Source: Thermoanaerobaculia bacterium (lineage in GTDB: Bacteria > Acidobacteriota > Thermoanaerobaculia > Gp7-AA8). From it: a stretch of DNA of 64,000 nucleotides. Below the pieces are notes generated by a model. It was not told the DNA's origin. It did not search any database and saw only the letters and a list, made by a program, of their open reading frames with translations. The stretch covers positions 5,257 to 69,256 of the forward strand of contig DATLXH010000128.1 in the NCBI GenBank assembly GCA_035576005.1. The letters are read 5' to 3'. This document shows, piece after piece, positions 25,231 through 59,104 of this stretch (positions within the stretch are counted from its first letter, which is position 1; every line of letters begins with the position of its first letter). The translations under genes were made by a program, and so were the position numbers.

Positions 25231-25287
25231 CCTGAACCGGACAGACCCGCCGCGAAGCGAAGGGTCTGTCCCATGAATCGTCAGTCC

Positions 25288-31387: not shown

Positions 31388-31391
31388 TTAA

Positions 31392-31569
31392 CCCGCATTT
31401 CTCACAGACCTTTGTCGTGAGACGGCGGAGAGTGGCCTGGATGCGAGGCGCACGGCGATTTTGCGACGAAGGCATAGTCGACACTATGTCAAGGAGCGAA
31501 ATTGCCGTGCAACGAAGCAGACAGGCCGCTATCCGTCGTCTCACGACAAAGGTCTGTGAGAAATGCGGG
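31392..31569. mobile_element. MITE family A (178 bp; whole element is an imperfect palindrome)
   Basis: CCCGCATTTCTCACAGACCTTTGTCGTGAGACGG...GTCGACACTATGTC...CCGTCGTCTCACGACAAAGGTCTGTGAGAAATGCGGG. Flanked by TTAA...TAG. Confidence 0.65.
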
Positions 31570-31598
31570 CTAGCTCCTTCCCCGCGCCTGCAGCGCAG

Positions 31599-38043: not shown

Positions 38044-38355
38044 ATGAGAAGACGACTCGGGGTCACACTGCTGCTGGCTGTCGCAATCACGAGCGCGGCG
38101 CTCGCGGAAAAGCCCAAACCGATGGAGTGTGACGCCTGGTCCTGCGGCGAAAAATGCGCTCCAGCGAAATATGAAGCGGGGCGCAGTTACTGGATGCCGC
38201 CCTGGCTCCTGGCCAATCCCCTTTACGGAGCGGCAATCCTCGAGAGCGCTGCTGTTGGAGGACTGCTGCTGATCGGCGGCATCGCCAGACGCAAGCGGAT
38301 CGCAGAGCCCGCGTTCACTGGCACCGACCGGCTATCGGGAGAAGTCATTCCTTGA
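38044..38355 (+). CDS. hypothetical small secreted/membrane protein
   Basis: Signal peptide, Cys-rich N-terminal part (CDAWSCGEKC) and a C-terminal TM helix. Confidence 0.4.
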   Translation: MRRRLGVTLLLAVAITSAALAEKPKPMECDAWSCGEKCAPAKYEAGRSYWMPPWLLANPLYGAAILESAAVGGLLLIGGIARRKRIAEPAFTGTDRLSGEVIP

Positions 38356-38789
38356 AACGACTGGCTCCTTTCGGTCTGATCCTGACCCTGCTTTCTGCCG
38401 TAGCGCTGTCAGTTCATTCGGAGACAGCTCCGGCAAAAGAGGGGAAACAGGTCGTGTGCGCCCTGTGCGGGGACTACACCTTCGACGTGAAACACGCAGT
38501 AACCGGGAAGTACAAAGGGAAGCACATTCATCTTTGCAGTCTCAAGGAGCTCAAGCTGCTCGAGGCAAAACCCGATCAGTATGTATGGGCGATCGATGTC
38601 GTCAGCGGTCAGAGGGTCCACAAGCTCGATACACCCTTCACGGCGGACCGCCGGGTGAACGTCCGGAAAGTCAAAGAGAAGAACAGACGGGAAATCTGGC
38701 CGCGGAGATTCTTCTTCGAGTCGCAGAAGAACCGTGATGAGTTTCTGCGCAATCCGGCCAGATACCTGAAAGAACCATACGACGTTTAG
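38352..38789 (+). CDS. TRASH/YHS-like metal-binding domain protein, secreted
   Basis: ATGA overlap coupling with the upstream gene. VVCALCGDYTF resembles a TRASH/YHS CxxCG motif. Confidence 0.45.
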   Translation: MKRLAPFGLILTLLSAVALSVHSETAPAKEGKQVVCALCGDYTFDVKHAVTGKYKGKHIHLCSLKELKLLEAKPDQYVWAIDVVSGQRVHKLDTPFTADRRVNVRKVKEKNRREIWPRRFFFESQKNRDEFLRNPARYLKEPYDV

Positions 38790-39204: not shown

Positions 39205-39370
39205 GAATCCCTCTCCCCGGCGGGGAGAGGGTGGTCGCGTCAGCGACCGGGAGAGGGGCCGCGAGAGATACGATGACCGCGCGTTTTAATGGAATCGCGA
39301 GACTCTCACGCCCCTCTCCCTGCTTCGCTTCGCTCGCTTCCCTCTCCCCGCCGGGGAGAGGGAACGCCGC
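39205..39370. repeat. composite REP-like element (family R)
   Basis: CCCTCTCCCCGGCGGGGAGAGGGTGGTCGCGTCAGCGACCGGGAGAGGGGCCGCGAGAGATACGA...CCCTCTCCCCGCCGGGGAGAGGGA. Confidence 0.6.
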
Positions 39371-39485: not shown

Positions 39486-40811
39486 ATGACGACGAGTCCC
39501 ACCACACAGCCCGGCGGTTATGGAGTCGAGCTCAACGACAACCCTCGGATGGGTGCAGCTCCGCTCGAGAAAGTCTACGCATTCTGGCTCGCCGGAATGA
39601 GCTGCGACGGCTGCTCCATCGCTGTTACGGGCGCCAGCGATCCGCCAGTCGAAGATCTACTGTTGGGAAGGATTCCCGGACTGCCGCGGGTGATCCTGTA
39701 TCACCCCGTTCTCTCCGCCGAAGCCGGCGACGAGTTCATCGCGAACTTTGATCTCGCCGCCGAGGGAAAGCTCGATGCCCCGTACGTCATCATTCTCGAG
39801 GGCTCGGCCACTGATGATTCGCTGCTCAAAGGCGATGGTTACTGGGTCGGACTGGGAGCGCGCGACGTTGGCGGAACTGACGGAAAAAAAGTCATCTCGG
39901 TCATGGAATGGATCGATCGACTGGCTCCCGGCGCTGCAGCCATGATTGCCATCGGCACCTGTGCGACCTGGGGCGGAATTCCGTCAGCAGTAGGGAACCC
40001 TACCGGTGCCATGGGTCTGATGGATTACCTGGGGAAGGACTATGTCAGCGCCTTCGGCCTGCCGGTCATCAACATTCCTGGTTGTGCTCCAGTCGGCGAC
40101 AACTTCACCGAAGTCGTGGCCATGGTTCTTCAATTCCTGCAGGGAACCGGGCCTCTTCCGGAGTTCGATCAGCTCGGCCGCCCGGCCTGGCAGTTTCGCG
40201 ATACCGTACACAACCGCTGCGTTCGGGGTGGCTATTACGAAGAAGGGATCTTCGCCAAGGAGTACGGCGATCCTGAGTGCCTCGTCGAGGTCGGATGCTG
40301 GGGCCCTGTCGTGCAATGCAACATCGTCGAGCGCGGTGCCATCCGCCATCACGGCGGCTGCATGAATCAGGGAGGCATCTGCATCGGCTGCACGATGCCC
40401 GGATTCCCCGACAAGTTCACACCCTTTTACACCGCACCACCGGGATCGTTCTTTTCAGCCGCGACAGCGACTACAACCGGCAAGATCGTGCGTTTCCTGC
40501 GCAGCTTTACGAAAAGCTCAGGCAACCGTTCCGTTCTATGGGACAAGCAGAATTCGATGCCGAGTGGATGGGCCATGCAGGCCCGTCCTGAGGGCTACCT
40601 CGAACAGTTCGTTCATCACTTCTATCGCAAACGCCAACTGTCGAGCTCCCTCGAGCCAGGACGAACGATTCCGGAGACACAGTTTCGTGATGGGTACGAG
40701 GTTCCCAGGATGGCCGAGCAGAAAGAGGTCGGCCACGGGGACATGCCCGTGATCTCAGGCCAGGAGCGACGACGAGCGAAGCTCGCGCGTGACGCTGCCG
40801 GGCTCCCGTAG
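39486..40811 (+). CDS. [NiFe]-hydrogenase small subunit, no Tat signal (group 1h/5-like, HhyS-type) with long C-terminal extension
   Basis: CxxC...GTCATWGG, CPV, and distal cluster Cys pattern (CxxGC...C). No RRxF twin-arginine motif at the N-terminus. Confidence 0.9.
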   Translation: MTTSPTTQPGGYGVELNDNPRMGAAPLEKVYAFWLAGMSCDGCSIAVTGASDPPVEDLLLGRIPGLPRVILYHPVLSAEAGDEFIANFDLAAEGKLDAPYVIILEGSATDDSLLKGDGYWVGLGARDVGGTDGKKVISVMEWIDRLAPGAAAMIAIGTCATWGGIPSAVGNPTGAMGLMDYLGKDYVSAFGLPVINIPGCAPVGDNFTEVVAMVLQFLQGTGPLPEFDQLGRPAWQFRDTVHNRCVRGGYYEEGIFAKEYGDPECLVEVGCWGPVVQCNIVERGAIRHHGGCMNQGGICIGCTMPGFPDKFTPFYTAPPGSFFSAATATTTGKIVRFLRSFTKSSGNRSVLWDKQNSMPSGWAMQARPEGYLEQFVHHFYRKRQLSSSLEPGRTIPETQFRDGYEVPRMAEQKEVGHGDMPVISGQERRRAKLARDAAGLP

Positions 40812-40944: not shown

Positions 40945-42804
40945 ATGTGCTTCAAGAATCTTCCAATTGAATTCGATGCCGCCGGTCGCGCTTCGCTGAT
41001 CGGCGGCGCTAAAGATCCGTTCGCGTATCAGCGGAAAGACATTTCCCGCGACGAGATTCGCAAGCTAATGGAGCAGAACGGTTTCGTTAAATCCATGGAC
41101 TTCGATCCTGTCACGCGCATCGCGGGAGCCCTGGCCTTTCATACGACCGTCGATCTCAAGCAGCGAAAGGTCCTCGAGGCAGCATCCATGGCCACGTTGT
41201 TCCGCGGCTACGAGGTCATCCTCAAAGGTCGTGACCCTCGCGATGCAATCTTCATCAGCAGCAGAGCGTGCGGGGTCTGCGGCGGCGTGCATGCCACCTG
41301 CGCATCACTGGCGCTGGAGATGGCCTTCGGAATCAAGCCTCCCCCGCTCGGGATCGTCATCCGGAACCTGGCCCTGAGCATGGAGTTCGTCTGGGACAAC
41401 ATCATGCATCTCTTCATGCTGGCCGGGCCGGACTACTCCGAGGAGATCATCAAGCGCACCGACCGCTGGCTCTGGGATCGGGCCACTCAGACGTCCACGA
41501 AGTTCGAGCACATCCACGGCTACAAGAATGTGGGCGCGATGCTGACCGATCTCAATCCACTGAGCGGAAAGCTCTACCTCCATGGACTCGAATTGACGCG
41601 AGTCGCTCGTGAGGGCTACGTCACGTTGATGAGCAAGTATCCCCATCCTGAGACGATCGTTCCGGGAGGAGTGAGTCACAACGTTACGGTGCAGAGCTTC
41701 AACATCTTCCGCAACCGGCTCATGAAGATGTTCGACTTTGCCAAGACGGCCATCGGAATCTGGGAAGAGATCACGAACTTTTTCTATGAAGCGAACCCCG
41801 AGTACAAGAAGGTCGGTACCCGCCCTCTGAACTTCGCCGACACAGGAATCTGGGACGATCCCTTTGCTTACGACGGAACGTACGAGAATTGCGACGATTG
41901 GGGAGAGCGCCGCTGGGCCACTCCCGGGGTCATCATCGACGGAAAACAGGTCACCACGAAACTTCGCCAGATCAACCTCGGGATCGAAGAGTTCATCGAG
42001 CACTCTTTCTACGAGCCATGGACCGGTCACCCTCACAAGACCGATCCCTCAGGCTCGCCACTCAGCCCTAACCATCCGTGGAACAAGGAGACCAAACCGA
42101 AACCAGAAGGGACGAACTGGCGAGAAAAGTACAGCTGGTCCACCGCTCCTCGCTGGGACCGCGTCGCTGTCGAGACCGGTACCTTCATTCGCATGTGGAA
42201 CACCGTGCTGGCCGGAAAGCTCCCTCATCAACGCTTCCTCGAGCTAACCGAGAACAGCATGCGCATCACCATTCCGGCCTTTGAGAAACCGGAAATGATC
42301 GCTGAGTGGAAGATTCCGGATCAGTGGAATGCCTTCGAGCGCAACCTCAGTCGCGCTTACGCAGTGGCCTACAACGCAGCGGTCGCTTACGACAACTGGC
42401 TCATCGGGATGGATCTGCTCAAAAAGGGAGACTCTCGAGTTTCCACGCCGTTCGAGGTCCCGAAAACGAACCGGCTCGGTGTTGGTTTCTGGGGTGCAGG
42501 ACGAGGCTGGCTCACACATCACATCGAGATCGACAAAGGCGCGATCGTCAACTACCAGATCATCACACCGTCAACACTCATGGCCTCACCGATGGATCCG
42601 TGGGGTAGTCCCGGCCCTTACGAGGAAGCGGTCCTGGCCACCCCCATTCTCGAGCAGTTCGAGAAGCCGGAGGACTTCAAAGGAATCGACATCCTTCGCA
42701 CGATCCGCAGTTTCGATCCCTGTATGCCATGCACTACGCACATCTACGCGGGGGATCAGGTTGTCACCCAGGACGTAAATACGTGTGCGTGCGGAGTGGA
42801 GTGA
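40945..42804 (+). CDS. [NiFe]-hydrogenase large subunit
   Basis: GAAGGAG RBS. L1 motif RACGVCGGVH near the N-terminus and L2 motif DPCMPCTTH at the C-terminus. Confidence 0.9.
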   Translation: MCFKNLPIEFDAAGRASLIGGAKDPFAYQRKDISRDEIRKLMEQNGFVKSMDFDPVTRIAGALAFHTTVDLKQRKVLEAASMATLFRGYEVILKGRDPRDAIFISSRACGVCGGVHATCASLALEMAFGIKPPPLGIVIRNLALSMEFVWDNIMHLFMLAGPDYSEEIIKRTDRWLWDRATQTSTKFEHIHGYKNVGAMLTDLNPLSGKLYLHGLELTRVAREGYVTLMSKYPHPETIVPGGVSHNVTVQSFNIFRNRLMKMFDFAKTAIGIWEEITNFFYEANPEYKKVGTRPLNFADTGIWDDPFAYDGTYENCDDWGERRWATPGVIIDGKQVTTKLRQINLGIEEFIEHSFYEPWTGHPHKTDPSGSPLSPNHPWNKETKPKPEGTNWREKYSWSTAPRWDRVAVETGTFIRMWNTVLAGKLPHQRFLELTENSMRITIPAFEKPEMIAEWKIPDQWNAFERNLSRAYAVAYNAAVAYDNWLIGMDLLKKGDSRVSTPFEVPKTNRLGVGFWGAGRGWLTHHIEIDKGAIVNYQIITPSTLMASPMDPWGSPGPYEEAVLATPILEQFEKPEDFKGIDILRTIRSFDPCMPCTTHIYAGDQVVTQDVNTCACGVE

Positions 42805-42848: not shown

Positions 42849-43430
42849 ATGCGAATTCTCATCGCCGGCGTCGGCTATTCGAACCTGAGCGACATGTCGC
42901 TCGGTCCGCTGCTCATTGAGATCCTAACTCAGCGCGCATGGCCTGAGGGCGTGGAGATTGACGACCTCAGTTATGGTCCGGTCTTCATTTGTCACAGCCT
43001 CGGCGAGCGCCCCGCATATGACCGGATCGTTCTGATCGGCGCCGTGTCGCGGGAAGAGGCTCCTGGAACCATCCGGCGCTTTCGCTGGGCCCATGAGCTC
43101 CCCTCCACTGACGAGATTCAGGCCCGTGTCGTGGAGGCTGCCACGGGCGTCACCAGTCTGGAGAATCTGCTGGTGGTCTCCACATACTTCAAGAGGCTTC
43201 CTGCTGATGTCGTGGTGCTCGAAATCGAACCTTTCGTCGATACGTTCGGCGCTGCGCTCAGCGACGATCTGAACGCTCTTCTGCCAGCGTTCATCGAGGA
43301 GTTGACGCGAGTCTGGTCCAGCCCCGACCCGCTCCCTTTGCTCGAGACCTATCGATTCATCATCGCCAATCCCGCGGACAGGCCGACGGGTTGGATCATC
43401 CGCGAAGCAGACTGGGGAGGATCGAATTGA
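42849..43430 (+). CDS. hydrogenase maturation protease-family protein (HyaD/HupD-like, divergent)
   Basis: MRILIAGVGYSNLSD...GP N-terminus of the family, but it lacks the canonical DDG motif. Confidence 0.65.
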   Translation: MRILIAGVGYSNLSDMSLGPLLIEILTQRAWPEGVEIDDLSYGPVFICHSLGERPAYDRIVLIGAVSREEAPGTIRRFRWAHELPSTDEIQARVVEAATGVTSLENLLVVSTYFKRLPADVVVLEIEPFVDTFGAALSDDLNALLPAFIEELTRVWSSPDPLPLLETYRFIIANPADRPTGWIIREADWGGSN

Positions 43431-43456: not shown

Positions 43457-43690
43457 CGCGTGCTCCCCTCTCCCCGGCGGAGATCGTCTCAAAAGGCCAA
43501 GATGAAAAGCCGAACGGAGAACGCAGAACGAAGAATGAAGAATTTAGAAAGAAAAAAGCGAAAAAAGACTGAAAAAACTCGGAATCCCCCGCTTTGTTTT
43601 CTTCATTCTTCATTCTTCATTCTGCGTTCTGCGTTCGGTTTCTCAAATCTTACTTTTGAGACGATCCCCGCGGGGAGAGGGGAAACCAAA
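43457..43690. mobile_element. AT-rich ~230-bp inverted-repeat element inserted into a REP-like 23-bp palindrome
   Basis: Arms AGATCGTCTCAAAAGGCCAAGATGAAAAGCCGAACGGAGAACGCAGAACGAAGAATGAAGAAT ... ATTCTTCATTCTGCGTTCTGCGTTCGG..CTTTTGAGACGATC. Flanks are CCCCTCTCCCCGGCGG | CCCGCGGGGAGAGGGG. Confidence 0.5.
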
Positions 43691-43740: not shown

Positions 43741-44514
43741 ATGAAAATCGCAATTGCCGGAAAGGGTGGATCGGGTAAGACCACGATCGGCGGAACGCTG
43801 GCGCGACTGCTCGCGCGTGGCGGCCTGTCTGACGTACTGGCCATCGACGCAGACTCCAATCCAAATCTCGCGCTCACGCTCGGTCTTTCGAGAGAAGCAT
43901 CACAGCAGCTCCGCCCGTTGACGCGCGACATTCTCAAACGGGTGACCGGCGAAGATGGAGAGCAGAGAACGGTGCTCGCAAAGACCCCCGCAGCGGTTGT
44001 GGATGAATACGGAGTGCAGACGCCCGATGGAGTCATGCTCCTGCTCATGGGACGCGTCGAGCACGCCGGCGCCGGCTGAATGTGCGGAGCCCACGCTGCC
44101 GTGCGCAGCCTACTGACTGAAATGATCGCAGAGAACGACCGTCCGACAATCGTGGACATCGAAGCGGGTCTCGAGCATCTGAGCCGGGGAACTGCACGCA
44201 GCGTCGACACGATGCTGGTGATCTTCGAGCCGTACTTCAAATCGATGGAGACGGGCGCACGCATGACGGCGCTGGCTCGGGAGCTGGGAATCCCCCGGGT
44301 CCTTGGAGTTGCCAATAAAGTGACCCCGGCAGATGAGAAAGACCTTGCCGCCTTCTGTCTTTCCCGGGACATGGAGCTGGCGGCGACAATTCCCCGTGAC
44401 GAAGTGATGGCCACGGCTGATCGAAACGGCTCCGGGCCACTGGACGTGAGTAGCAGCAGCCCCGCCATCGACGCGATCGGAAAGCTCGCGGAGCGCTTGA
44501 AAGCTGATGGCTGA
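43741..44514 (+). CDS. cooC: CooC-family (MinD/ParA-type) nickel-insertion ATPase interrupted by an in-frame TGA at codon 113 (first Cys position of the CxC Ni-binding motif). Selenocysteine candidate or pseudogene; the track splits it into 43741..44079 and 44080..44514.
   Basis: Deviant Walker A KGGSGKTT. Downstream DIEAGLEHLSRGT is the CooC hallmark. The sequence reads ...EHAGAG-TGA-ATG-TGC..., i.e. G-[U/*]-M-C. The second half has no RBS of its own. Confidence 0.6.
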
Positions 44515-44517
44515 CGG

Positions 44518-44997
44518 ATGAGGACACTCGTTGCAGGCTTCGGAAACATTCTTCTCGGCGACGACGGGTTCGGCGTCGAGGTGGTCCGACGCCTCGAGCG
44601 CGAAGGGAAGCTCCCTGAGAACACTGAGCTCATCGATGTAGGAATCGGTGGTTTCGATTTCGTTCTCCGCCTCATGGACGGATACGACCGGGTGGTTGTC
44701 GTCGATGCCGTGCGCCGCCGTGAAAGGCCCGGCACCCTCCATGTTTTTCGCCCTGCTCCGACGGACGTCGTCCTCGAGACAGGAGAACGTCTCGACCCGC
44801 ACTTTGCGGAACCGGCGCGAGCGATGATCATGGCCCGTCAGATGTCGTGCCTTCCTGACGACGTCACCGTGGTCGGATGCGAAGTACTGAGTTGCGATCT
44901 GGGCGTCGGCCTCAGCGAGCCCGTGGAAGCTGCAGTCCGGGAAGCGATGGACAGGGTCAAGTCTCTGACCCGCATTTTTCACGGAGCTTTGTCGTGA
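44518..44997 (+). CDS. [NiFe]-hydrogenase maturation endopeptidase (HupD/HoxW/HycI family); 3' end fused into a MITE
   Basis: GNILLGDDGFG (GNxxxxDDGxG) motif. The last ~9 codons are encoded by MITE-A sequence from 44969. Confidence 0.75.
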   Translation: MRTLVAGFGNILLGDDGFGVEVVRRLEREGKLPENTELIDVGIGGFDFVLRLMDGYDRVVVVDAVRRRERPGTLHVFRPAPTDVVLETGERLDPHFAEPARAMIMARQMSCLPDDVTVVGCEVLSCDLGVGLSEPVEAAVREAMDRVKSLTRIFHGALS

Positions 44998-45146
44998 GAC
45001 GGCGGAGAGTGGCTTGGATGCGAGGCGCACGGCGATTTTGCGACGAAGGCATAGTCGACACTATGTCGAGGAGCGAAATTGGCGTGCAACGAAGCAGACA
45101 GGCCGCTATCCGTCGTATCACGGCGAAGGTCTGTGAGAAATGCGGG
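44969..45146. mobile_element. MITE family A copy inserted at the 3' end of the hydrogenase protease gene
   Basis: CCCGCATTTTTCACGGAGCTTTGTCGTGAGACGGCGGAGAGTGGCTTGG ... GAAGGTCTGTGAGAAATGCGGG, followed by TTAATAA. Confidence 0.65.
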
Positions 45147-45165
45147 TTAATAACGGAGCACGCCC

Positions 45166-45972
45166 ATGCAATTTGAAGAGCTCGAAGAATTGATGACCCG
45201 CCTCGAGTCCACCACTGACAACAGCGAGCGACAGCAGATCTACGGGATCGTCGGTCCAATTCTCGATTTTCATCGCCAGGCCTTCGCTCGCGTAGTGGAG
45301 ATTCTCGAGGAGGAAGGGGCACGCCACCTGCTGGACCGCATCGTGCGCGATCCGTTGCTGGAGAGCCTGCTGCGTGGTTACGAGCTCATAGAACTGGGAT
45401 TGGATCAGCGTGTTCTGGCAGCGCTGGAGATCGCCCGCCCGATGCTCAAGATGCACGGAGGAGATGTCTCGCTCGTAAAGATGCGAGGGAAGGTCGCCGA
45501 GCTCGAGCTCACTGGATCGTGCCAGGGCTGCGCGGCCTCCATGACCACTCTGCGCAACCTCATCGAGAAAAATCTCTACCAGCAGGTGCCGGAGCTCCGA
45601 GGAATCGAGGTGGCAGGTCTGACCGCGGCAGGCGCGAGCTCCCAGACCTGGCTTCCGCTCGTGCATCTGTACGAGGTGCGGGACGGGGAATGGCTCAAGG
45701 TTCAGCTCTTCGACGACCAGCTTCTGGTCTGCTCGATGGACGAACATCCTTTTGTATTCGAGAATCGTTGTCCCGCGGGAGGCGAGCCGCTCGACACAGC
45801 GGCTTTCGGGTACCTCTCCATCGGTTGCGTCGAGCACGGCCATCAGTTCGATCTTCGTACCGGCCTGAGCGCCGTCAATCCCGCGTTGCGCCTGCGGATC
45901 TACCCTGCCATCATCGATGATGCCGTCGTCAGGATCGCGTATGAGCCAAACAACGTTCCAGTTGCAGGATGA
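45166..45972 (+). CDS. NifU-like Fe-S assembly domain fused to a Rieske-like [2Fe-2S] domain (hydrogenase-associated)
   Basis: GGDVSLVKMRGKVAELELTGSCQGCAASMTTL (NifU C-terminal-type CxxC) and a C-terminal CPAGG...CVEHGH Rieske-like ligand pattern. Confidence 0.65.
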   Translation: MQFEELEELMTRLESTTDNSERQQIYGIVGPILDFHRQAFARVVEILEEEGARHLLDRIVRDPLLESLLRGYELIELGLDQRVLAALEIARPMLKMHGGDVSLVKMRGKVAELELTGSCQGCAASMTTLRNLIEKNLYQQVPELRGIEVAGLTAAGASSQTWLPLVHLYEVRDGEWLKVQLFDDQLLVCSMDEHPFVFENRCPAGGEPLDTAAFGYLSIGCVEHGHQFDLRTGLSAVNPALRLRIYPAIIDDAVVRIAYEPNNVPVAG

Positions 45973-46294
45973 CATCCTCCAGATGCTGTACTGGATGCGG
46001 GGCGAGCATCTGGGCGACGACGTGTCGAGCGAGCAGCTGAATCAGTTCCTGAAGGTTGACGAGCCACTGCTCGCCGCTTCGATCGAACGACTGGTCGATC
46101 GCAGTCTCCTCGAGAGAGTTGGAGATGCCAGACTACGGCTGACAGCCGTCGGCATCGAAGAGGGGAAGAAACGGTTCCTCGAAGAGTTCTCCACCTATCT
46201 CGGAAAGGAGTCGCACATCGCGTGCAGCGATCCCGAATGCGACTGCAGCAGCGCCGACTGGGTTGGAGCGTGCCGCTCGAGCACGTCGGTTTAG
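45941..46294 (+). CDS. small hydrogenase-associated protein with C-terminal Cys cluster (CSDPECDC...C)
   Basis: ATG overlapping the upstream stop (ATGA). Predicted helical N-terminus, and a Cys-rich tail. Confidence 0.45.
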   Translation: MSQTTFQLQDDILQMLYWMRGEHLGDDVSSEQLNQFLKVDEPLLAASIERLVDRSLLERVGDARLRLTAVGIEEGKKRFLEEFSTYLGKESHIACSDPECDCSSADWVGACRSSTSV

Positions 46295-46557: not shown

Positions 46558-46799
46558 GTTAGTTGACCTAGAGCACGGTGAGCCCCGCAAGGGGCGGCAT
46601 CGATGCCGCCGCTTCGCGGCTCCGTGGAATTCTCGTACAGTCACACCCCACCCTCACGGGTGGGGCTAAACGATATCGCCGCTTCGCGGCTGGGAGGACG
46701 CACCAGTTCATCACCTCTTCACCAGCCGTTCCCGGCTGTTCTCCCGCTACAGGGATGACACGCTCGCGGGTTGATAGAAGGGTTGTGAGAAAATGCCGC

Positions 46800-47753: not shown

Positions 47754-48041
47754 ATGGATAGCATGACTCTCTGGCAAATCTCCTGGGCAATCGGAGCATT
47801 GGTTGTCGTCATCGTTGCCGTGCTTCTCCTGCTCATCCTCGCAGCTGCCCGACGCATCGATAACCGGGCCAAAGAAATCTGGCAGGCGGGAAAGGAGATC
47901 GCTTCCAATACGGTCTCCATCTGGATGTTGCAGAAAACCAATGTCGTCGCCGGTGAGATCCTCGGTGTTGCGCAGGGGATTGCTGCCGGCGCCGGGGCAA
48001 TAGACGCCAAGCTGGCAGGCCTGGCCGGGAGCAAGAAGTAA
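47754..48041 (+). CDS. small single-pass membrane protein, paralog 1 of a tandem array of four
   Basis: N-terminal TM helix plus an amphipathic Ala/Ile/Gly-rich C-terminal region. Stop and start overlap the next paralog (TAATG). Confidence 0.5.
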   Translation: MDSMTLWQISWAIGALVVVIVAVLLLLILAAARRIDNRAKEIWQAGKEIASNTVSIWMLQKTNVVAGEILGVAQGIAAGAGAIDAKLAGLAGSKK

Positions 48042-48331
48042 TGCGACCGGTTCTGCTGGCCACCCTCATCTATCTCGGGATTCTGGTGGCCGTGCTCGCT
48101 GTGGGTCTGATCATGATCGCCTGGCGGCTATGGGCCACAGGCACGGCACTGGCCGCGATTCGCGACGAGCTGGCTTCCGTTAGGGACGACACTTCACCGC
48201 TGGCGTCCCACATCGGGGCGATCAATGGCGCGCTCTCGCAGTTAGGGGGCGGTCTGGCATCGGTACTGGCACGGCTCGGACGCGCCAACAGCGCGCTGGG
48301 CCGGATCATTGGGAAATCCAAGGTAGCCTGA
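48041..48331 (+). CDS. small single-pass membrane protein, paralog 2
   Basis: Same architecture. TSPLASHIGAINGALSQLGGGL aligns with TTPLTSAIPGVAGNLTSIGEGL of paralog 4. Confidence 0.5.
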   Translation: MRPVLLATLIYLGILVAVLAVGLIMIAWRLWATGTALAAIRDELASVRDDTSPLASHIGAINGALSQLGGGLASVLARLGRANSALGRIIGKSKVA

Positions 48332-48338
48332 GGACGAG

Positions 48339-48635
48339 ATGCCCCTATCCGTCCACATCATCTGGTGGATCACCCTGGCCCTGGCGCTGGGGATCACGGT
48401 CCTTGCCACGGCGTACCTCATTCTCGTCGTTCGGGAGTGTGGACAGATTATGGAACTTGCACGACGAACCATTCCATCGGCACAGCTGATTGCCCGAAAC
48501 ACGAAGGCCATCGCCAGTCTCACGGCGGTCCTCGACCTTGCACCGACACTGCTCAAAGTAGCGGGGAACATCGACCGCGAGTCGGAGACGATTGCTTCCA
48601 CCATCGAATCCGTCGCGCCACGAGCGTCCGCATGA
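48339..48635 (+). CDS. small single-pass membrane protein, paralog 3
   Basis: Same architecture. ATGA overlap with paralog 4. Confidence 0.5.
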   Translation: MPLSVHIIWWITLALALGITVLATAYLILVVRECGQIMELARRTIPSAQLIARNTKAIASLTAVLDLAPTLLKVAGNIDRESETIASTIESVAPRASA

Positions 48636-48925
48636 TTCTCTGGACCGTTCTCAGCTGCGTCCTTTTTCTAACGCTCCTGGCGTTCCTTACCTGGGCGCTC
48701 AACAAAATCCTTCATGCCCTTCAGGCCATCCGCAGCAGCCTCGAGAAAATTGCCATGGGCGTCAAAGCCATCAGCGTCGAGACCACGCCACTCACCAGCG
48801 CGATTCCGGGAGTAGCCGGCAACCTCACCAGCATTGGAGAAGGCCTGGTGATCGTCGAGAAACATCTCACTGGCAGCGCCGCCAGTCTTCCGGGTGCTGC
48901 TCGTGCACTCGGGCTCCTTCCGTGA
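48632..48925 (+). CDS. small single-pass membrane protein, paralog 4
   Basis: Same architecture. Its stop overlaps the hypF GTG start. Confidence 0.5.
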   Translation: MILWTVLSCVLFLTLLAFLTWALNKILHALQAIRSSLEKIAMGVKAISVETTPLTSAIPGVAGNLTSIGEGLVIVEKHLTGSAASLPGAARALGLLP

Positions 48926-51315
48926 CCTCGGGCGGCCACGCTCTCGTCGCCGAACAGACTTCGGCAAGGAGCGGCCTGCGTGTCCGCGGAGTCGTGCAGG
49001 GAGTCGGTTTCCGTCCTTTTGTCTACCGGCTGGCGCGCCAGTATGGGATGTCCGGATTCGTTCGCAACGATTCGGGGGGCGTCTGGATAGAAATCGAAGG
49101 CAGGCACGCGATACTCGCCGAGTTTCCTGATCTGCTCCGTCGCCAGGCTCCCGCGGCCGCTGTCATTCAAGCGATCGAAAGCTTTCCACTTCCCCTGAAG
49201 TTCGACGGCAATTTTTCGGTCATTGAGAGTGCAGCCACGCCCGGGAATCGCGCTCGCATTCCCTGCGATCTCGCTACCTGCAGCTACTGCCTCCAGGAGC
49301 TCTTCGACCCGATGAATCGACGGTATCTCTACCCCTTCATTAACTGCACTGCCTGCGGTCCCCGCTTTTCGATTGTTCGCGATACGCCGTACGACCGAGC
49401 TCGGACGACCATGGACGCCTTTTCCCTATGCGCTGCCTGCCTGGATGAATACCAGAGCCCGGCTGATCGTCGATTCCATGCGGAACCAAACGCCTGCGCC
49501 GTTTGCGGTCCCAGGCTTCAGTTCGTTTCTTCCAGGCCGGAAGAAAATACGCCGCTCTCCGACTCAACAAACAGGGAAGCGCTTGCGCGCGCCGTTGCCT
49601 TGCTCCAGAAGGGCTTGATCGTGGCCATCAAAGGTCTGGGAGGGTTTCATCTCGCCGTTGACGCCACCAACGACGTTGCTGTGCGGAGACTCCGCGATCG
49701 TAAGCAAAGACCTCACAAACCATTCGCCGTGATGGCGCGCGACGCAATCATGGCCTCTACGATCGCTGAGGTTGGTGAAAGTGAAGCCAGGCTACTGACG
49801 TCCGTGCAACGTCCGATCGTCCTGCTCCCAGCGAGAAAGTCGGCTCTTCCGAACTCCATAGCGCCGGCCAGCGACGAGATCGGAGTCATGCTTCCCTACA
49901 CGCCGCTTCATCATCTGTTGCTCGATGCCCTGCCGCTTCTGGTCATGACCAGCGGAAATCGTGCAGATGAGCCGATCGTCATCGACAACGACGTAGCGAT
50001 CGAGCAGCTCTCCGGAATCGCCGACGCCTTCCTCCTGCATGATCGAGAGATTCATGCACGAGTGGACGATTCCGTCACTCGGGTCGCGAACGGGACTCGC
50101 AGAATGCTTCGACGCTCCCGTGGGTTTGTGCCCGATCCGATCGAGCTTCAGCTTCCGGTTCGCCACGCAGCCGAGAGGCAGGGGCAACCATTCCCTTCCG
50201 ACAACGAGGACAACGTACCTTCAGCAGGCCCGACCCCTTCGATTCTGGCGGTGGGCGCGGAGCTCAAAAACACGCTATGCATCACGCGTGGCAGCGAGGC
50301 TTTCCTGTCCCAGCACATCGGAGACCTGGAGTCGCCGGAGTCTCTCGAGTTCTTCAAGGAAACCACCACCCGCCTTTCCCGCCTTCTATCCGTGACGCCC
50401 GCCGTCGTCGCCCACGACCTTCATCCCGATTACGCATCGACACGATGGGCACTGGCCAGCGGACTGCGACGAATCCCGGTGCAGCATCATCACGCTCACA
50501 TCGCCTCCTGTCTGGCTGAGAATGGGAGGAGCGAGCGCGTGATCGGCGTGGCCTTCGATGGCACCGGCTGCGGTCCGGCGGGCGAGTTATGGGGCGGGGA
50601 GTTCCTTCTCGCTGACGCCAGAAATTCAGAGCGGGTCGGCCACCTCCGCCCCCTAGGACTGATTGGCGGAACGGCCGCGATTCGAGAGCCGTGGCGCCTC
50701 GCAGTCGCAGCACTCGATGATGCCGGGGAGGAAACGGACATCCTGAGAGACATCGATCCGTACCGACGTGAAATGGTGTTGTCCATGAGCCGTAAAGGAA
50801 TTCGAACTGTCCGATCGACGAGCGCTGGCCGCTGGTTCGACGCCGTTGCCGCTCTTTGCGCAGTGCGTGAAGAGATTACCTACGAAGCGCAGGCAGCGAT
50901 CGAGCTCGAGGCACTTGCGTCACGTGATGACGTCGAGCCATACAGTTTCACGCTCACAGAAGATGCAGTCTTCGAGGTCGACCTCCGTCCTGCCATTCGC
51001 GAAATCGTCGGCGACCTCCGGGCGGGACTCGCTACAGCCATCATCTCGTCGCGTTTTCATCAGACTATGGCGAGCTTGATTTCCGCTGGGGCAGTCGCTG
51101 CGCGCAGCAGAGGAGGTCCGGCCATCATCGCGCTCTCTGGAGGCTGCTTTCAAAATCGGCTTCTCAGTGAACGGGCACGGACGCTTCTCGAAAGAGACGG
51201 CTTCGAGGTTCTCCAGCATCGCCACGTTCCCGCCAACGATGGCGGGATTGCACTCGGTCAGGCGTTCGTGGCGGCGCACTTGCTGGCTTCCGAGACAGGG
51301 TACGATGCGAGTTAG
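48922..51315 (+). CDS. hypF: [NiFe]-hydrogenase maturation carbamoyltransferase HypF
   Basis: Acylphosphatase domain (VRGVVQGVGFRPFVYRLA), two CxxC-x18-CxxC zinc fingers, and YrdC-like and Kae1/YgjD-like C-terminal domains. Confidence 0.9.
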   Translation: MTSGGHALVAEQTSARSGLRVRGVVQGVGFRPFVYRLARQYGMSGFVRNDSGGVWIEIEGRHAILAEFPDLLRRQAPAAAVIQAIESFPLPLKFDGNFSVIESAATPGNRARIPCDLATCSYCLQELFDPMNRRYLYPFINCTACGPRFSIVRDTPYDRARTTMDAFSLCAACLDEYQSPADRRFHAEPNACAVCGPRLQFVSSRPEENTPLSDSTNREALARAVALLQKGLIVAIKGLGGFHLAVDATNDVAVRRLRDRKQRPHKPFAVMARDAIMASTIAEVGESEARLLTSVQRPIVLLPARKSALPNSIAPASDEIGVMLPYTPLHHLLLDALPLLVMTSGNRADEPIVIDNDVAIEQLSGIADAFLLHDREIHARVDDSVTRVANGTRRMLRRSRGFVPDPIELQLPVRHAAERQGQPFPSDNEDNVPSAGPTPSILAVGAELKNTLCITRGSEAFLSQHIGDLESPESLEFFKETTTRLSRLLSVTPAVVAHDLHPDYASTRWALASGLRRIPVQHHHAHIASCLAENGRSERVIGVAFDGTGCGPAGELWGGEFLLADARNSERVGHLRPLGLIGGTAAIREPWRLAVAALDDAGEETDILRDIDPYRREMVLSMSRKGIRTVRSTSAGRWFDAVAALCAVREEITYEAQAAIELEALASRDDVEPYSFTLTEDAVFEVDLRPAIREIVGDLRAGLATAIISSRFHQTMASLISAGAVAARSRGGPAIIALSGGCFQNRLLSERARTLLERDGFEVLQHRHVPANDGGIALGQAFVAAHLLASETGYDAS

Positions 51316-51332
51316 CGGGCTAGGGGGAAACC

Positions 51333-51623
51333 ATGTGTCTCGGTATACCAGGTGAGATTCTCGAGTTACGAGTCGAGAAAGGATTGCCATTCGGCAAAGT
51401 GAAGTTCGGCGGCATCACCCGGTCCGTCTGCCTGGCCTACGTGCCTGAGGCCTCCGTAGGCGAGTTCGTGGTCGTTCACGTCGGCTTTGCCATCTCCATC
51501 ATCGACGCCGAGGAGGCAGCGCAGGCATACAAAATCCTCGAAGAGATCGGTCAGATCGGAGAGCTCACCGCGGACCTTCCACCCGACATCCTCGCCAACC
51601 TTCCTTCCAGCAAAGTCCAATGA
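51333..51623 (+). CDS. hypC: hydrogenase assembly chaperone HypC/HupF
   Basis: N-terminal MCLGIPGEI signature. Confidence 0.9.
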
Positions 51624-52726
51624 AATACCTCGACGAATACCGCGATAGTGCGGTGGCTGCCGCCCTGGTCCGTGAGATCAAAACCGTGGCCACGCGCCCG
51701 TGGGTACTCATGGAAGTCTGCGGCGGACAGACGCATTCGATCGTCCGCTACGGCATCGATCGCATGCTTCCCACCTCGGTCGAGCTCGTTCACGGACCAG
51801 GCTGTCCCGTCTGCGTCACGTCCCTCGAGACAATCGATCGCGCTCATGCAATCGCCAGCCGTCCCGACGTCATTTTCACGTCCTTCGGCGACATGCTCCG
51901 AGTTCCCGGATCGCGTGGTGATCTGCTGGCGCTCAAGAGTCGTGGAGCTGACGTCCGCGTGGTCTACTCTCCGCTGGACGCCGTCCGAATTGCGCGCGAC
52001 AACCCTACCCGGCAGGTCGTGTTCTTCGGCATTGGATTCGAAACCACGGCGCCAGCAAATGCCATGGCGGTTTTCAGCGCCAAGAAGGAAGGGCTGAAGA
52101 ATTTCTCGATGCTCGTTTCTCACGTGCTGGTGCCACCGGCCATGGCATCGATCCTCCAGGCTCCGGGCAATCGCGTGGAAGGCTTCCTCGGGCCCGGTCA
52201 TGTCTGCTCGATCATGGGGACCAGAGAGTACGAGTCGTTGTCGGCCCGGTTCAAAGTACCGATCGTGATCACTGGTTTCGAGCCGATCGATCTGCTCGAG
52301 GGCATCCTCATGACGGTAAGACAGCTGGAAAGTGGACAGGCAACCGTCGAGAATCAGTACGCGCGCGCAGTGAGTGCGGAAGGGAATCTCCCCGCACAAA
52401 AAATCCTGTTTGAGGTCTTCGAGATCACCGATAGAAAGTGGCGCGGTGTCGGCTCCATCCCCAAGTCCGGATACAAGCTCCGCTACGAATACCGGGAGCA
52501 CGACGCTGCGAAACTTTTCGAGGTCGAGGATATCGAGACGGCCGAGCCGGAGGTCTGCATCAGCGGACTCATTCTTCGCGGCCTCAAAAAGCCGCACGAC
52601 TGTCCGGCCTTCGGGAAAGAGTGCCGGCCCGAGCATCCCATCGGAGCGACGATGGTTTCGGCTGAAGGCTCCTGCGCCGCCTACCTCCAGTATGGACGGT
52701 ATCCAGAAGCACACGAGTCGGTATGA
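51620..52726 (+). CDS. hypD: hydrogenase maturation factor HypD
   Basis: [13 protein letters not shown] and FEPID-type conserved motifs. ATGA overlap with hypC. Confidence 0.9.
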
Positions 52727-53331
52727 CTGGTACCCATGAGCGCGTCGACCTTCGTGATGCCATCCTTCGGAAAGCAGGAGAAAGCGCGGAGCTGAAGACA
52801 CGGTTCTTCGAGGAGAACGCGGATCTTCTCATCCGTTGCGTGGAACGGCTCGCCGAATCGTTTCGCTCCGGAGGTCGGCTGCTTGTCATGGGCAACGGAG
52901 GATCGGCTTGTGACGCGCAGCATGTGGCCATCGAGTTTCAGCATCCCATCATCGAGAAGCGCAAACCGCTGCCTGCCATGGCCCTCACTGTCGACACCGC
53001 CGCACTCACCGCCATCGGAAATGACGGCGACTTCGCGCGCGTGTTCGTCGAACAACTGGACATGCTGGGCCGCACCGGCGATGCAATTCTCGGGATCTCT
53101 TCCTCAGGTGCATCGGCAAACGTGAATCGTGCGTTGAAGCGAGGACGCGAGATGGGTCTCGTCACCATCGGCTTCTCGGGACGGGACGGCGGCCGGATGC
53201 CCGAGCTATGCGACTTCTGTTTCACTGTCCCCAGCTGGTCGATCCACCGCATCCAGGAAGTGCACACGACGCTGCTGCATCTTCTGTGGGACCTTGTCCA
53301 CGTCTCTATGGGAGAGGACGATGTCCTCTGA
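52723..53331 (+). CDS. SIS-domain protein (GmhA-like sugar-phosphate isomerase fold) embedded in the hyp operon
   Basis: [15 protein letters not shown] and [16 protein letters not shown] motifs. Coupled by overlap to hypD and hypE. Confidence 0.8.
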
Positions 53332-54385
53332 TTCCGGTAGCTCCACTCCCTTCTCCGACTGTCCACTCCCTTTCCGCGACACGTCCCAGATCCTGCTCGG
53401 ACACGGAAGCGGCGGGAAGCTCACCGGAGAACTGATCGAGAAGCTTCTGTTGCCAGCATTCAACAATGACGTTCTGTCTCAGCTCGACGATCAGGCGATT
53501 CTAACCATCGGCGACTCACGCATCGCCTTCACGACCGACAGCTATGTCGTCACCCCGATCTTTTTCCGGGGCGGCGACATCGGCTCACTGGCGGTGAACG
53601 GCACAATCAATGACCTGGCCATGGGTGGGGCGGTGCCAAAGTTCCTCTCTCTCGCGCTGATTCTCGAAGAAGGTCTTGCCATGGGGGATCTCGAGCGCGT
53701 CGTGGCCTCAATACGCGATGCTTCGCGAGCTGCCGGTGTGGCGATTGTTACGGGCGACACGAAAGTCGTGGGACGCGGCAGCGGTGACAAAATCTTCATC
53801 AATACCGCCGGGATCGGCATCGTCCCCGAGGGCGTTACTCTTTCGTCGAAGCAGGTCAGGCCGGGTGATGACATCCTGCTCTCCGGTCCGATCGGCGATC
53901 ACGGAATTGCGATCCTTTCTCAACGCGAAGGGCTCGAGTTCGACGGAGAGATTGCAAGCGACACTGCTCCGCTTCACACGCTCGTGGCCGCTATGCTCAA
54001 AGCGTCGTCGTCGATCCATGCGATGCGTGATCCCACACGCGGCGGTCTGGCAGCGACACTCGTGGAGATCGCGACACGGCAACACCTCGGCATGGAAATC
54101 GACGAACCATCCATCCCTGTGCGAGAAGTCGTCCGCGGTGCGTGCGAGATTCTCGGACTCGACCCGATGTTCGTGGCGAACGAAGGGAAGCTCGTCGCCT
54201 TCGTACCACCGGAGAGCACCGATGACGTCCTGCGCGCCATGCGCGAACATCCTCTGGGTAGAGACGCCGTGCGGATCGGTGGCGTTATCAAAGATTCGTC
54301 CGGGCGCGTTCGCCTCCGCACCCCGATTGGTGGCTATCGGCTACTCGACCTTCCCTTTGGGGAGCTTCTCCCACGAATCTGCTGA
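53321..54385 (+). CDS. hypE: hydrogenase maturation factor HypE
   Basis: PurM-like fold and the C-terminal PRIC motif. Confidence 0.9.
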   Translation: MSSDSGSSTPFSDCPLPFRDTSQILLGHGSGGKLTGELIEKLLLPAFNNDVLSQLDDQAILTIGDSRIAFTTDSYVVTPIFFRGGDIGSLAVNGTINDLAMGGAVPKFLSLALILEEGLAMGDLERVVASIRDASRAAGVAIVTGDTKVVGRGSGDKIFINTAGIGIVPEGVTLSSKQVRPGDDILLSGPIGDHGIAILSQREGLEFDGEIASDTAPLHTLVAAMLKASSSIHAMRDPTRGGLAATLVEIATRQHLGMEIDEPSIPVREVVRGACEILGLDPMFVANEGKLVAFVPPESTDDVLRAMREHPLGRDAVRIGGVIKDSSGRVRLRTPIGGYRLLDLPFGELLPRIC

Positions 54386-54404
54386 GACGCGACACGCAGA
54401 CTAA

Positions 54405-54600
54405 ACCCTCTCCCCGGCGGGGAGAGGGTGGTCGCGTAAGCGACCGGGAGAGGGGCCGCGAAAGATACGATGGCCTCAACTATCGCGAAACCCCTGCTCA
54501 ACACGGCCCTTATCGTGTCGACCCTGACCGCATGAATTGCGAGACTTTCGCGCCCCTCTCCCTGCTTTCGCTTCGCTCGCTTCCCTCTCCCCGCCGGGGC
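54405..54600. repeat. composite REP-like element (family R), right terminal palindrome truncated by an insertion
   Basis: CCCTCTCCCCGGCGGGGAGAGGGTGGTCGCGTAAGCGACCGGGAGAGGGGCCGCGAAAGATACGA...CCCTCTCCCCGCCGGGG|. Confidence 0.6.
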
Positions 54601-55113
54601 ATATGCGCTAACTTTACCTCGCGGGGTCGCAGGCCCCCGGTCCCTCAGAGGGTAGCCGGTGGTGCGAGCGTTAGCGAGTGACCACCGGGATGCGTCGGCG
54701 AAAGACAGTTCGACCCCGGATGGGGTCGCGTAGTTCTCACCAGAGATAGCGCTCGTCGTACTCGACATTGTGCTCTTCGAGAAACTCCGTGTACTTCCCC
54801 TGGAACGTTCTCCCGCGGTGATGTTTCTCCTGTTCCCGAACGGACTTTCGAACTGACGGTACGGCTGATTTGCTCACCGAGAACGCCACTCAGCGTCGAT
54901 GAAGGGAACACGGTCCTTCGTGCTAAGCACGATGGGAATGGGAAGGCTGCTATGTGTCGACGGCATCGCAAGATCCTACGCGGCCCCTCCGGGGTCGAAT
55001 GACTTCCGCGAATCCATAGACCCGGTGGTCACTCGCTAACGCTCGCACCACCGGCTACCCTATGAGGGACCGGGGCCTAGATCCGCGAGGTAAAGTTAGC
55101 GCGTATGCCCCAG
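54598..55113. mobile_element. ~515-bp non-coding element with ~93-bp terminal inverted repeats, inserted into the shared palindrome of two tandem REP-like elements
   Basis: Left TIR GGGGCATATGCGCTAACTTTACCTCGCGGGGTCGCAGGCCCCCGGTCCCTCAGAGGGTAGCCGGTGGTGCGAGCGTTAGCGAGTGACCACCGG. Its reverse complement is at 55020-55113 (~92% identity). No convincing ORF inside. Confidence 0.55.
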
Positions 55114-55265
55114 CGGGGAGAGGGTGGTCGCGTAAGCGACCGGCAGGAGGGGCCGCGAGAGATACGAAGACCTCGCCTTTTCCGACGGACTGGCGAGACT
55201 TTCACGCCCCTCTCCCTGCTTCGCTTCGCTCGCATCCCTCTCCCCGCCGGGGAGAGGGATGCGCC
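55100..55265. repeat. composite REP-like element (family R), left terminal palindrome truncated
   Basis: |AGCGGGGAGAGGGTGGTCGCGTAAGCGACC...CCCTCTCCCCGCCGGGGAGAGGGATGCGCCGCTTCGCGGCTC. Confidence 0.6.
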
Positions 55266-55353: not shown

Positions 55354-55710
55354 ATGCTGAGTCTCCTTCGGTCGATCCTCATCCTCACGGCGATTCTTTC
55401 GATAAGCCCTGCGGCGCACGCAGCGGATCGTCAGGTCCTCGTGTTCGACATCAAAGGGATGCATTGCTCGGGATGTGCGTCCGGGATCAAAGCGATGCTC
55501 GTGCGAGTGCAGGGAGTTACGAAAGCGGAAGTGAGCTACGAGGAAACACGCGCGCGCGTGGAGTACGATCCCGCCAGAACGACTTCGGCGACGATCATCG
55601 ACACCGTCGAGAAGATGGGTTACAAAGTCAGGCCGCGAAAAGTAGTCAGGCAATCTGAGCGGCAAGGTGCACGAAGTAAGCACCTGCGCCGATCAACGCC
55701 AGTCCGCTGA
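55354..55710 (+). CDS. periplasmic heavy-metal-associated (HMA) domain protein (MerP/CopZ-like)
   Basis: Signal peptide, and GMHCSGCASGIK (GMxCxxC) in a betaalphabetabetaalphabeta-length domain. The 3' end overlaps the convergent membrane-protein gene. Confidence 0.75.
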   Translation: MLSLLRSILILTAILSISPAAHAADRQVLVFDIKGMHCSGCASGIKAMLVRVQGVTKAEVSYEETRARVEYDPARTTSATIIDTVEKMGYKVRPRKVVRQSERQGARSKHLRRSTPVR

Positions 55711-56345: not shown

Positions 56346-56508
56346 TCAAATGGATTCAATTCTCATATCTCGACAACGGTGATTGGTCCACCGCTTCGAG
56401 AGCCTCCTCGATCTGGTTGGAACTGGACGCGCAAGGCCCGGCACCGCGAACGTCGACGGAACACTCACGAGTAACCGGGCTGACTGTGCAGCCCGGTACT
56501 CGTTACCG

Positions 56509-59068: not shown

Positions 59069-59104
59069 ATTGTGGCCGGACATTCCAATGTCCGGCGGAT
59101 CAGC

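Follow-up and report, generated by a model that had tools for sequence, protein, structure and literature searches.

Does an in-frame stop codon at a predicted metal ligand mark a decayed gene, or a gene whose UGA is read as an amino acid? The question is raised by a CooC-type ATPase gene located at positions 43741–44514 (forward strand) of a 64,000-nucleotide stretch of contig DATLXH010000128.1 from a Thermoanaerobaculia bacterium (assembly GCA_035576005.1, contig positions 5,257 to 69,256). This whole stretch is hereafter called the window, and its coordinates are used throughout. A preliminary description of the window preferred decoding of the TGA as selenocysteine (Sec) to a nonsense mutation, and this preference is now supported by conservation of the TGA among relatives, open reading frames downstream of it, a hairpin specific to TGA-bearing forms, and a second Sec/Cys gene pair in the same window. 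From these sequence comparisons, we consider it likely that 43741–44514 is one functional gene for a CooC-type (MinD/ParA-class) ATPase in which UGA is read as Sec, and that its product probably delivers nickel to a hydrogenase.

Read through the TGA, the gene is complete, with 257 codons including one Sec codon, plus a stop codon. Its ATG start at 43741 has AGGA upstream, and 112 codons (MKIAIAGKGGSGKTT...RVEHAGAG) precede the TGA at 44077–44079. On the 3′ side of the TGA lie an ATG (44080), a TGC (44083), 142 more codons and the stop codon at 44512–44514. Raw sequence and translation thus agree with the earlier reading of a single CooC-type frame with one in-frame TGA and, as had also been stated, no ribosome-binding site precedes the ATG at 44080. 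The open reading frame (ORF) listing cuts the gene into 43741–44079 and 44080–44514, both in the same frame. GenBank likewise carries it as two proteins of a Thermoanaerobaculia metagenome-assembled genome (MAG), namely HXI13410.1 (“AAA family ATPase”, 112 aa) and HXI13411.1 (“hypothetical protein”, 137 aa). The same sequence recurs in independent Logan, JGI and ENA assemblies. A change of the genetic code, with UGA as a sense codon, was rejected because TGA is the ordinary stop codon of hydL, hypD, hypE and many other bona fide genes of the window. Within a database of 5.8 billion proteins, the closest full-length proteins are 53–56% identical to the joined CooC-type protein. Genomes with CooC-type genes of 60–81% identity do exist, unlike full-length protein entries at that level; the database holds no full-length near relative because gene callers cut the TGA forms in two.

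The joined protein matches Pfam CbiA/AAA_31 and aligns over residues 1–230 with CooC1 of Carboxydothermus hydrogenoformans (PDB 3KJE; E=1.3e-35, ~35% identity). Searches of NCBIfam return sub-threshold MinD/ParA matches only, and no selenoprotein-specific model matches. The protein has the deviant Walker A motif GKGGxGK[ST] of the CooC family (COG3640) as the P-loop GKGGSGKT at residues 7–14 (43759–43782, +), where G7, K8, G9, G10, G12, K13 and T14 are invariant in homologue alignments. In the 3KJE alignment, residues 113 and 115 of the query fall on C112 and C114 of CooC1. Alignment with 14 and with 40 full-length homologues shows little or no variation at G112, C113, C115 and H118 and puts the TGA in column C113, which bears out its placement exactly at the first Cys of the C-x-C motif. 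The metal motif of these homologues reads G-C-x-C-x-x-H, and the window version is U-M-C, in which the in-frame UGA (44077–44079, +) would encode Sec113 and the codon at 44083–44085 (+) encodes the invariant Cys115, the second ligand of the predicted U-x-C metal motif. CooC1 homology, the deviant Walker A motif and the C-x-C position, with the first Cys replaced by Sec, are therefore all found, and the genetic context typical of the CooC family is not: there are no CO dehydrogenase/acetyl-CoA synthase domains among the Pfam-scanned ORFs of the window. The original label of a CooC-like nickel ATPase is upheld, as to the CooC family, by homology and motif, and is refined in its context, which is a [NiFe]-hydrogenase cluster and not one for CO dehydrogenase. 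The CooC-type protein also gives no Pfam match to the cobW/HypB GTPase domain with its ENVGNLVCP motif, and the gene may act like HypB yet falls outside the HypB family.

To compare relatives, one genome per GTDB species was scanned, which yielded 80 loci, and the homologous codon was read in each. Of the 80 species-level loci, 62 have TGC or TGT at this codon and the other 18 have TGA (L001–L010, L012, L013, L017, L025, L026, L038, L049 and L073). These TGA loci span at least seven phyla, down to ~40% identity. Their carriers include Thermoanaerobaculia and other Acidobacteriota, Candidatus Entotheonella, a deltaproteobacterial MAG, Acidimicrobiia and another Actinomycetota MAG, together with Herpetosiphonaceae, Promineifilaceae and Chloroflexia (Chloroflexota), Verrucomicrobiota and Dormibacterota. 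TGC or TGT is carried by Chthoniobacterales, many Bacteroidota, Bathyarchaeia and one Dormibacteria MAG, among others. Carriers of the Cys form that are in culture include Maribacter halichondriae (L063), Flagellimonas allohymeniacidonis (L070) and the Cyclobacteriaceae strain YHN15 (L036). In all 18 TGA relatives the frame stays open to the normal C-terminus, giving a total of 253–270 aa, with 48–86% identity to the window protein before the TGA and 40–79% after it. A neighbor-joining tree interleaves Sec and Cys forms, which is the usual pattern of Sec/Cys families. Chance is ruled out as the cause of the TGA pattern because 18 independent species-level relatives share this codon.

Downstream of the UGA lies a proposed apical hairpin of a bacterial selenocysteine insertion sequence (bSECIS), GCUGC-CGUGC-GCAGC, at 44095–44109 (+), in which 44095–44099 pair with 44105–44109 around the loop CGUGC (44100–44104). 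It starts 15 nt from the last base of the TGA and 18 nt from the first, so the distance of 18 nt reported earlier holds if counted from the U of UGA. The bSECIS model, as excerpted from a May 2026 catalogue of prokaryotic selenoproteins (PMC13188914), has a loop of 3–9 nt, an upper stem of 4–16 bp, a spacing of 16–37 nt from the UGA, a minimum free energy (MFE) of at most −7.5 kcal/mol, and a G in the first two loop positions followed by G or U. The window hairpin lies within these constraints, with a 5-nt loop whose second base is G and whose third is U, a 5-bp stem and 20 nt from UGA to loop; its core energy of −7.5 kcal/mol is borderline for the cutoff. For the comparison among relatives, the 54 nt counted from the TGA were aligned without gaps across the 19 TGA-bearing sequences (window plus 18). 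Columns 19–23 pair with columns 29–33, and in several lineages 16–23 pair with 29–36, around a 5-nt loop at columns 24–28; the stem of these relatives reaches 8 bp, equivalent to 44092–44112 in the window. RNAalifold gives the same 5-bp core on the 19 sequences. In this register 77.8% of cells are paired, compared with 14–47% (maximum 46.5%) when the 3′ partner is slid by 1–3 columns, and the covariation score is 0.31, compared with ≤0.13 for the slid versions and a value reached by none of 500 shuffles. Compensatory changes occur at pair 21–31 (C-G in 8 sequences, U-A in 7) and at pair 22–30 (G-C in 11, A-U in 5, C-G in 1). Part of this covariation is synonymous, since columns 21 and 30 are third codon positions, of an Ala and an Arg codon respectively.

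The hairpin is also largely confined to TGA forms, with all five core pairs present in 14 of 18 distinct Sec sequences and in 1 of 57 distinct Cys sequences. The four Sec sequences missing in-register pairs appear, from the alignment, to form the hairpin anyway, with a one-base bulge in L004/L008 and L005/L007 and a one-base shift in L025. The only Cys form with all five pairs, L035 (nt 1580–1633 of a Chloroflexota MAG), clusters with Sec forms in the tree, and may have retained its SECIS as a relic of a recent switch from Sec to Cys.

Further support for Sec insertion is suggested by a second selenoprotein-type gene, which encodes a DsbD_TM/CcdA-like membrane protein at 55646–56359 on the reverse strand, with a TTG start at 56359–56357. 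Its UGA (56254–56252) lies in a U-P-C motif (...LSTTT-UGA-P-C-TFPAG) and aligns with the Cys of C-P-C in full-length homologues of 51–55% identity. Some 80 closer database homologues (58–97% identity) are gene calls that end just after the UGA codon, and four orthologous DNAs retain the TGA (L082, 95%; L085, 72%; L083, 61%; L084, 60%). The gene has a hairpin of its own at 56241–56224, UCCCNGC-AGGU/GGGC-GUNGGGR, which starts 10 nt past the UGA codon and has its apical loop 17 nt past it. One stem position is C-G, U-A or G-C, through synonymous third bases of Pro and Val codons. A second TGA-x-Cys gene for a metal-handling protein had been pointed out at 55646–56345; the pattern stands, with a Sec/Cys pair and a covarying hairpin, and the limits are corrected to 55646–56359. 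It is difficult to account for two unrelated genes, 12 kb apart, that each combine a conserved UGA in a Cys column with a separate covarying hairpin, unless Sec is inserted in this lineage. The DsbD-like gene has heavy-metal genes as neighbors (HMA chaperones, a Cu/Hg P-type ATPase, MerR, MerT and CusABC), and the window copy has an HMA-domain gene beside it at 55354–55710. A scan of all six frames of the window found no convincing third gene combining a UGA, a hairpin and a Cys column, and the UGA-plus-hairpin candidates at 16202 and 23555 were rejected as copies of a dispersed repeat. At 38175–38789 (+), an ORF weakly matches the YHS domain in its C-terminal part, short of the Pfam cutoff (E=7.5e-6). 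A known Sec family (GxU) is found among YHS-domain proteins, but the present ORF has TAG as its stop codon and lacks an in-frame TGA.

The genes surrounding the CooC-type gene form a [NiFe]-hydrogenase cluster on the forward strand. The small subunit (39486–40811; Pfam Oxidored_q6 and NiFe_hyd_SSU_C) is followed by the large subunit (40945–42804; Pfam NiFeSe_Hases), the probable client of the CooC-type protein. The large subunit ends in the motif DPCMPCTTH, in which the nickel ligand is Cys and not Sec, so the enzyme is no [NiFeSe] hydrogenase. Its closest solved structure is 5AA5, a group 1h enzyme (E=2e-137), and the hydrogenase is assigned to the group 1h/1l/1m lineage as a whole. Clusters of this lineage house Sec and Cys forms of the CooC-type gene alike. 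Directly upstream of the CooC-type gene is a hydrogenase maturation protease-like gene (42849–43430; NCBIfam TIGR00072 hydrog_prot, 7e-14), which is kept beside it in related loci. The 310-nt spacer between these two genes has a tandem array at 43600–43640 (+; TCTTCAT four times, TCTGCGT twice). A HycI/HybD-type maturation endopeptidase (44518–44997; Pfam HycI, 8.5e-20) follows, and is probably co-transcribed with the CooC-type gene since its start lies 4 nt past the CooC-type stop. Next are a NifU-like plus Rieske [2Fe-2S] protein (45166–45972; Pfam NifU and Rieske) and a conserved 125-aa protein with no Pfam match and a Cys-rich C-terminal tail (45917–46294; HIACSDPECDCSS..GAC; HIACSDPECDCSSADWVGAC). 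The 125-aa protein accompanies the CooC-type gene in most loci, at 31–62% identity, and may act as a partner that binds metal or as a regulator; it could correspond to the “BirA homolog” of Ray et al. Downstream of its gene, an intergenic match to the Rfam small RNA Acido-Lenti-1 (46646–46691, +; 47.1 bits against a gathering threshold of 37) is consistent with an acidobacterial origin. Four tandem genes for ~96-aa proteins, each with one N-terminal transmembrane (TM) helix and no Pfam match, are found at 47754–48925 (+), directly upstream of hypF. Similar small TM proteins have been reported from group 1l (HylTM1-5) and group 1m hydrogenase clusters. The genes hypF, hypC and hypD, one for a SIS-domain protein, and hypE then span 48922–54385, as assigned by Pfam and by gene prediction on Logan contig L081, which is identical in sequence. 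Hydrogenase structural or hyp genes adjoin the CooC-type gene in 71 of the 80 loci, including 17 of the 18 Sec loci. Pfam finds no hypA or hypB in the window, and scanning for HypA and HypB motifs gave no match in any of the 81 sequences (~1.1 Mb of flanking DNA), in which hypCDEF are common.

Several results weigh against the interpretation of the gene as a Sec-containing nickel chaperone. ARAGORN searches of the 64-kb window and the 18 TGA loci yielded no tRNA-Sec, and selA, selB and selD were found neither in the window (Pfam, ~65 ORFs) nor in those loci. The 64 nt after the UGA of the window fold with an MFE of −13.1, a value that shuffled sequences match (z = −0.03), and their minimum-energy fold is a competing hairpin closer to the UGA and outside the SECIS model. 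This competing hairpin (nt 6–14 with 19–28) is made of conserved Cys, Val and Arg codons and was rejected as a SECIS, its loop lying only 11 nt from the UGA and lacking a G. In the proposed hairpin itself, the invariance of the loop-region bases G25, U26, C28 and G29 is no evidence on its own, because the conserved Val-Arg codons that fix them are shared by Cys forms. The energies of GU-centered hairpins split Sec from all Cys forms (p=5e-6), but set Sec forms apart from the 14 GC-rich Cys homologues only marginally (p=0.06). For this reason we rely on in-register pairing and covariation, and the case for a recoding signal is one of comparative evidence, not of thermodynamics. No Rfam SECIS family is matched, either in the whole window at the gathering threshold or in the two UGA regions at E up to 10, where the single match of any kind arose by chance. 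The lack of an Rfam SECIS match is expected because bacterial SECIS elements are short and protein-family-specific. Lastly, the absence of HypA and HypB was judged by Pfam for the window and by two regular expressions for the loci, and the genes may lie elsewhere in the genomes.

With these points in mind, the gene could be viewed as a pseudogene, in which a single-base nonsense change (TGC to TGA) or a sequencing or assembly error interrupts a Cys-form gene. The TGA is indeed one base away from TGC, the GenBank annotation shows two fragments, and the 64-kb window has no Sec machinery. A pseudogene would hardly show TGA at the same codon in 18 other species-level genomes of at least seven phyla, with frames conserved to the C-terminus, nor would an error recur in independent Logan, JGI and ENA assemblies, and the hairpin is specific to TGA forms; by these comparative data the explanation is effectively refuted, and we assign it a negligible probability. 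It is scarcely credible, too, that the gene is split, with a P-loop half ending at the TGA and a C-terminal half started anew at the adjacent ATG (termination-reinitiation), followed by assembly of the two polypeptides. This arrangement would suit the ATG found next to the TGA in the window and about two thirds of its TGA relatives. In six relatives, however, the neighboring codon is CTG (L010, L012, L017), GCG (L013) or AAC (L026, L073), none of them a start codon, so a restart at ATG cannot explain the conserved downstream half. Met is moreover the commonest residue at x in Cys forms (C-M-C), which makes the ATG an inherited residue and not a start; the ATG at 44080 lacks a ribosome-binding site, and the first metal ligand would be lost.

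Two further explanations accept recoding and differ in the residue inserted or in the role of the protein. Cys-recoding tRNAs have been described in a few bacteria, and the UGA could be recoded through a SECIS and SelB as Cys or another residue, for instance by a UCA-anticodon tRNA-Cys accepted by SelB, resulting in an ordinary C-x-C CooC. The delivered amino acid is not readable from sequence alone. Such a route is rare, however, and offers no reason to keep a UGA and a hairpin across seven phyla when TGC would serve, and the interleaving of Sec and Cys forms in the tree is the normal selenoprotein pattern. Recoding to Cys is thus improbable, and we hold with high confidence that Sec, rather than another residue, would be inserted at codon 113. 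A more serious alternative, unlikely but deserving of real weight, is that the protein is a true selenoprotein with another role, whether for another metal, for an Fe-S cluster, or as a MinD/ParA-like assembly or localization ATPase for a membrane-associated hydrogenase complex. Family membership is given by homology alone at ~35% identity to CooC1, beside the sub-threshold NCBIfam MinD/ParA matches; the neighbors include the NifU-like/Rieske Fe-S proteins and the four small single-TM proteins; and genes for HypA and HypB may be present in other parts of the genome. Against another role, the CooC-specific G-C-x-C-x-x-H motif is invariant and lies exactly at the Sec, and MinD and ParA lack it. 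The gene is flanked by two maturation proteases, which act right after nickel insertion, and HypA/HypB motifs are absent from the flanks of the 81 loci despite the common occurrence of hypCDEF. That the metal is nickel and the client a hydrogenase is the reading we moderately favor.

In the proposed mechanism for a Sec-containing CooC-type chaperone, the mRNA hairpin at 44095–44109, 15 nt past the UGA, would recruit a SelB-type factor, and codon 113 would be decoded as Sec. The product would be a protein of 257 residues with Sec-Met-Cys in place of the usual CooC Cys-x-Cys. In CooC1, the C-x-C motifs of two ATP-bound protomers make one interfacial thiolate site for Ni or Zn. By analogy, two ATP-bound protomers of the window protein would dimerize, and their paired U-x-C motifs would form a four-ligand site (two Se and two S) for Ni(II) at the dimer interface. 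ATP hydrolysis would open the dimer and allow the metal to pass to the client, most likely the adjacent large subunit of the group 1h/1l/1m-lineage [NiFe]-hydrogenase; a hydrogenase is the likely client because the gene lies in a [NiFe]-hydrogenase cluster and not in a CO-dehydrogenase cluster. The CooC-type protein could then stand in for the HypA/HypB nickel-insertion step, which is absent from these clusters. We advance this replacement of HypA/HypB only tentatively. Equally tentative is its extension to a wide range of aerobic soil and sediment bacteria (Acidobacteriota, Chloroflexota, Actinomycetota, Dormibacterota and Verrucomicrobiota), in which a CooC-type ATPase might replace HypA/HypB for high-affinity hydrogenases of the group 1h/1l/1m lineage, with about a fifth of sampled lineages using a 2Se/2S nickel site.

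Elsewhere, the window contains dispersed intergenic repeat families of ~45–270 nt, some of them palindromic (CCCCGGCGGGGAGAGGG...). Copies are found at 25055–25236, 31391–31572, 44968–45149 and 59104–59285, with further copies at 16056–16326 / 23409–23680 and at 13027, 39206–39363, 54403–54475 and 55108–55259. One copy sits between the HycI-type protease and NifU/Rieske genes. These repeats yield spurious ORFs as well as spurious matches to a UGA followed by a hairpin. A large serine recombinase ORF at 3245–4996 (+), with Resolvase, Recombinase and Zn-ribbon domains, overlaps a tRNA-Gln (4862–4936, −) and is adjoined by a DUF559 endonuclease-like ORF (5061–5528). This region may be the edge of an integrated element.

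We propose the CooC-type protein as the candidate founder of a new selenoprotein family, a Sec variant of a known metallochaperone family for which a Sec/Cys pair, a conserved UGA and frame, and a bSECIS can all be seen computationally. The May 2026 catalogue of 119 prokaryotic selenoprotein families (PMC13188914) contains no CooC, MinD or ParA-type ATPase, its nearest analogue being a CobW-related G3E GTPase (UxxC). The main text of the deep-Sep and BSepDB papers has no mention of CooC, ATPase or hydrogenase, and nothing relevant was found in the literature on Sec-containing CooC. If the interpretation holds, a selenoprotein family is missing from both the 119-family catalogue and NCBIfam, and the protein would be the first MinD/ParA-class metallochaperone shown to use Sec. 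Selenium would then take part in the maturation pathway, and not the active site, of [NiFe]-hydrogenases. The hydrogenase lineage concerned is credited with atmospheric H2 scavenging in desert and polar soils, and, should the CooC-type ATPase indeed replace HypA/HypB, the maturation of atmospheric-H2-oxidizing hydrogenases would depend on selenium in organisms with the Sec form. Sec might be used for its lower pKa, for a faster exchange of metal or because it resists irreversible oxidation in aerobes, and the natural occurrence of Sec and Cys forms side by side makes the preference for Sec in a nickel chaperone testable. Split annotation also causes surveys of such clusters to undercount or miss the CooC-type gene. 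The stand-alone DsbD_TM protein with its U-P-C motif, found in metal-resistance loci, would be a second apparently uncatalogued Sec family in the same window; it is not included as such in the catalogue (PMC13188914), which has only the TsoB rhodanese/DsbD fusion.

Among known systems, CooC1 (PDB 3KJE, 3KJG, 3KJH and 3KJI), which serves ATP-dependent nickel insertion into the Ni,Fe CO dehydrogenase, is the closest counterpart and shares the GKGGxGKT motif, the DxxAGxEHLxRGT switch region and the C-x-C position. The window protein differs in having Sec as the first Cys and in its [NiFe]-hydrogenase/hyp context, with no CO dehydrogenase gene in the window. A hydrogenase cluster described in 2022 (PMC9561532) has the same type of neighborhood: genes for the small and the large subunit lie side by side, accompanied by those for a HybD-type peptidase, an Fe-S assembly protein, a CooC-type ATPase and small single-TM proteins. 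That study mentions no selenocysteine or split gene, and its group 1m MAGs are all Actinobacteriota, in contrast to the Thermoanaerobaculia here. The second gene shares with the TsoB rhodanese/DsbD fusion-like selenoprotein (NF045694) a DsbD-type TM domain with Sec, and its NCBIfam match to that family is weak (6e-8, far below the cutoff); unlike TsoB, it is a stand-alone DsbD_TM protein with one Sec in U-P-C, no UxxxxU fusion and a heavy-metal resistance context. The CobW-related G3E GTPase selenoprotein is likewise a nucleotide-hydrolyzing metallochaperone with Sec for Cys in its metal-binding motif, but it has UxxC where the window protein has UxC, it is not a MinD/CooC-type ATPase, and it occurs in another genomic context. 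HypB and HypA have the role proposed here, that of nucleotide-driven nickel delivery to the large subunit before C-terminal proteolysis, with homology limited to the P-loop. In [NiFeSe] hydrogenases, selenium is a nickel ligand in hydrogen metabolism, as is also proposed for the CooC-type protein; there, however, Sec lies in the catalytic large subunit (DPUxxC), whereas here it would be carried by a maturation factor.

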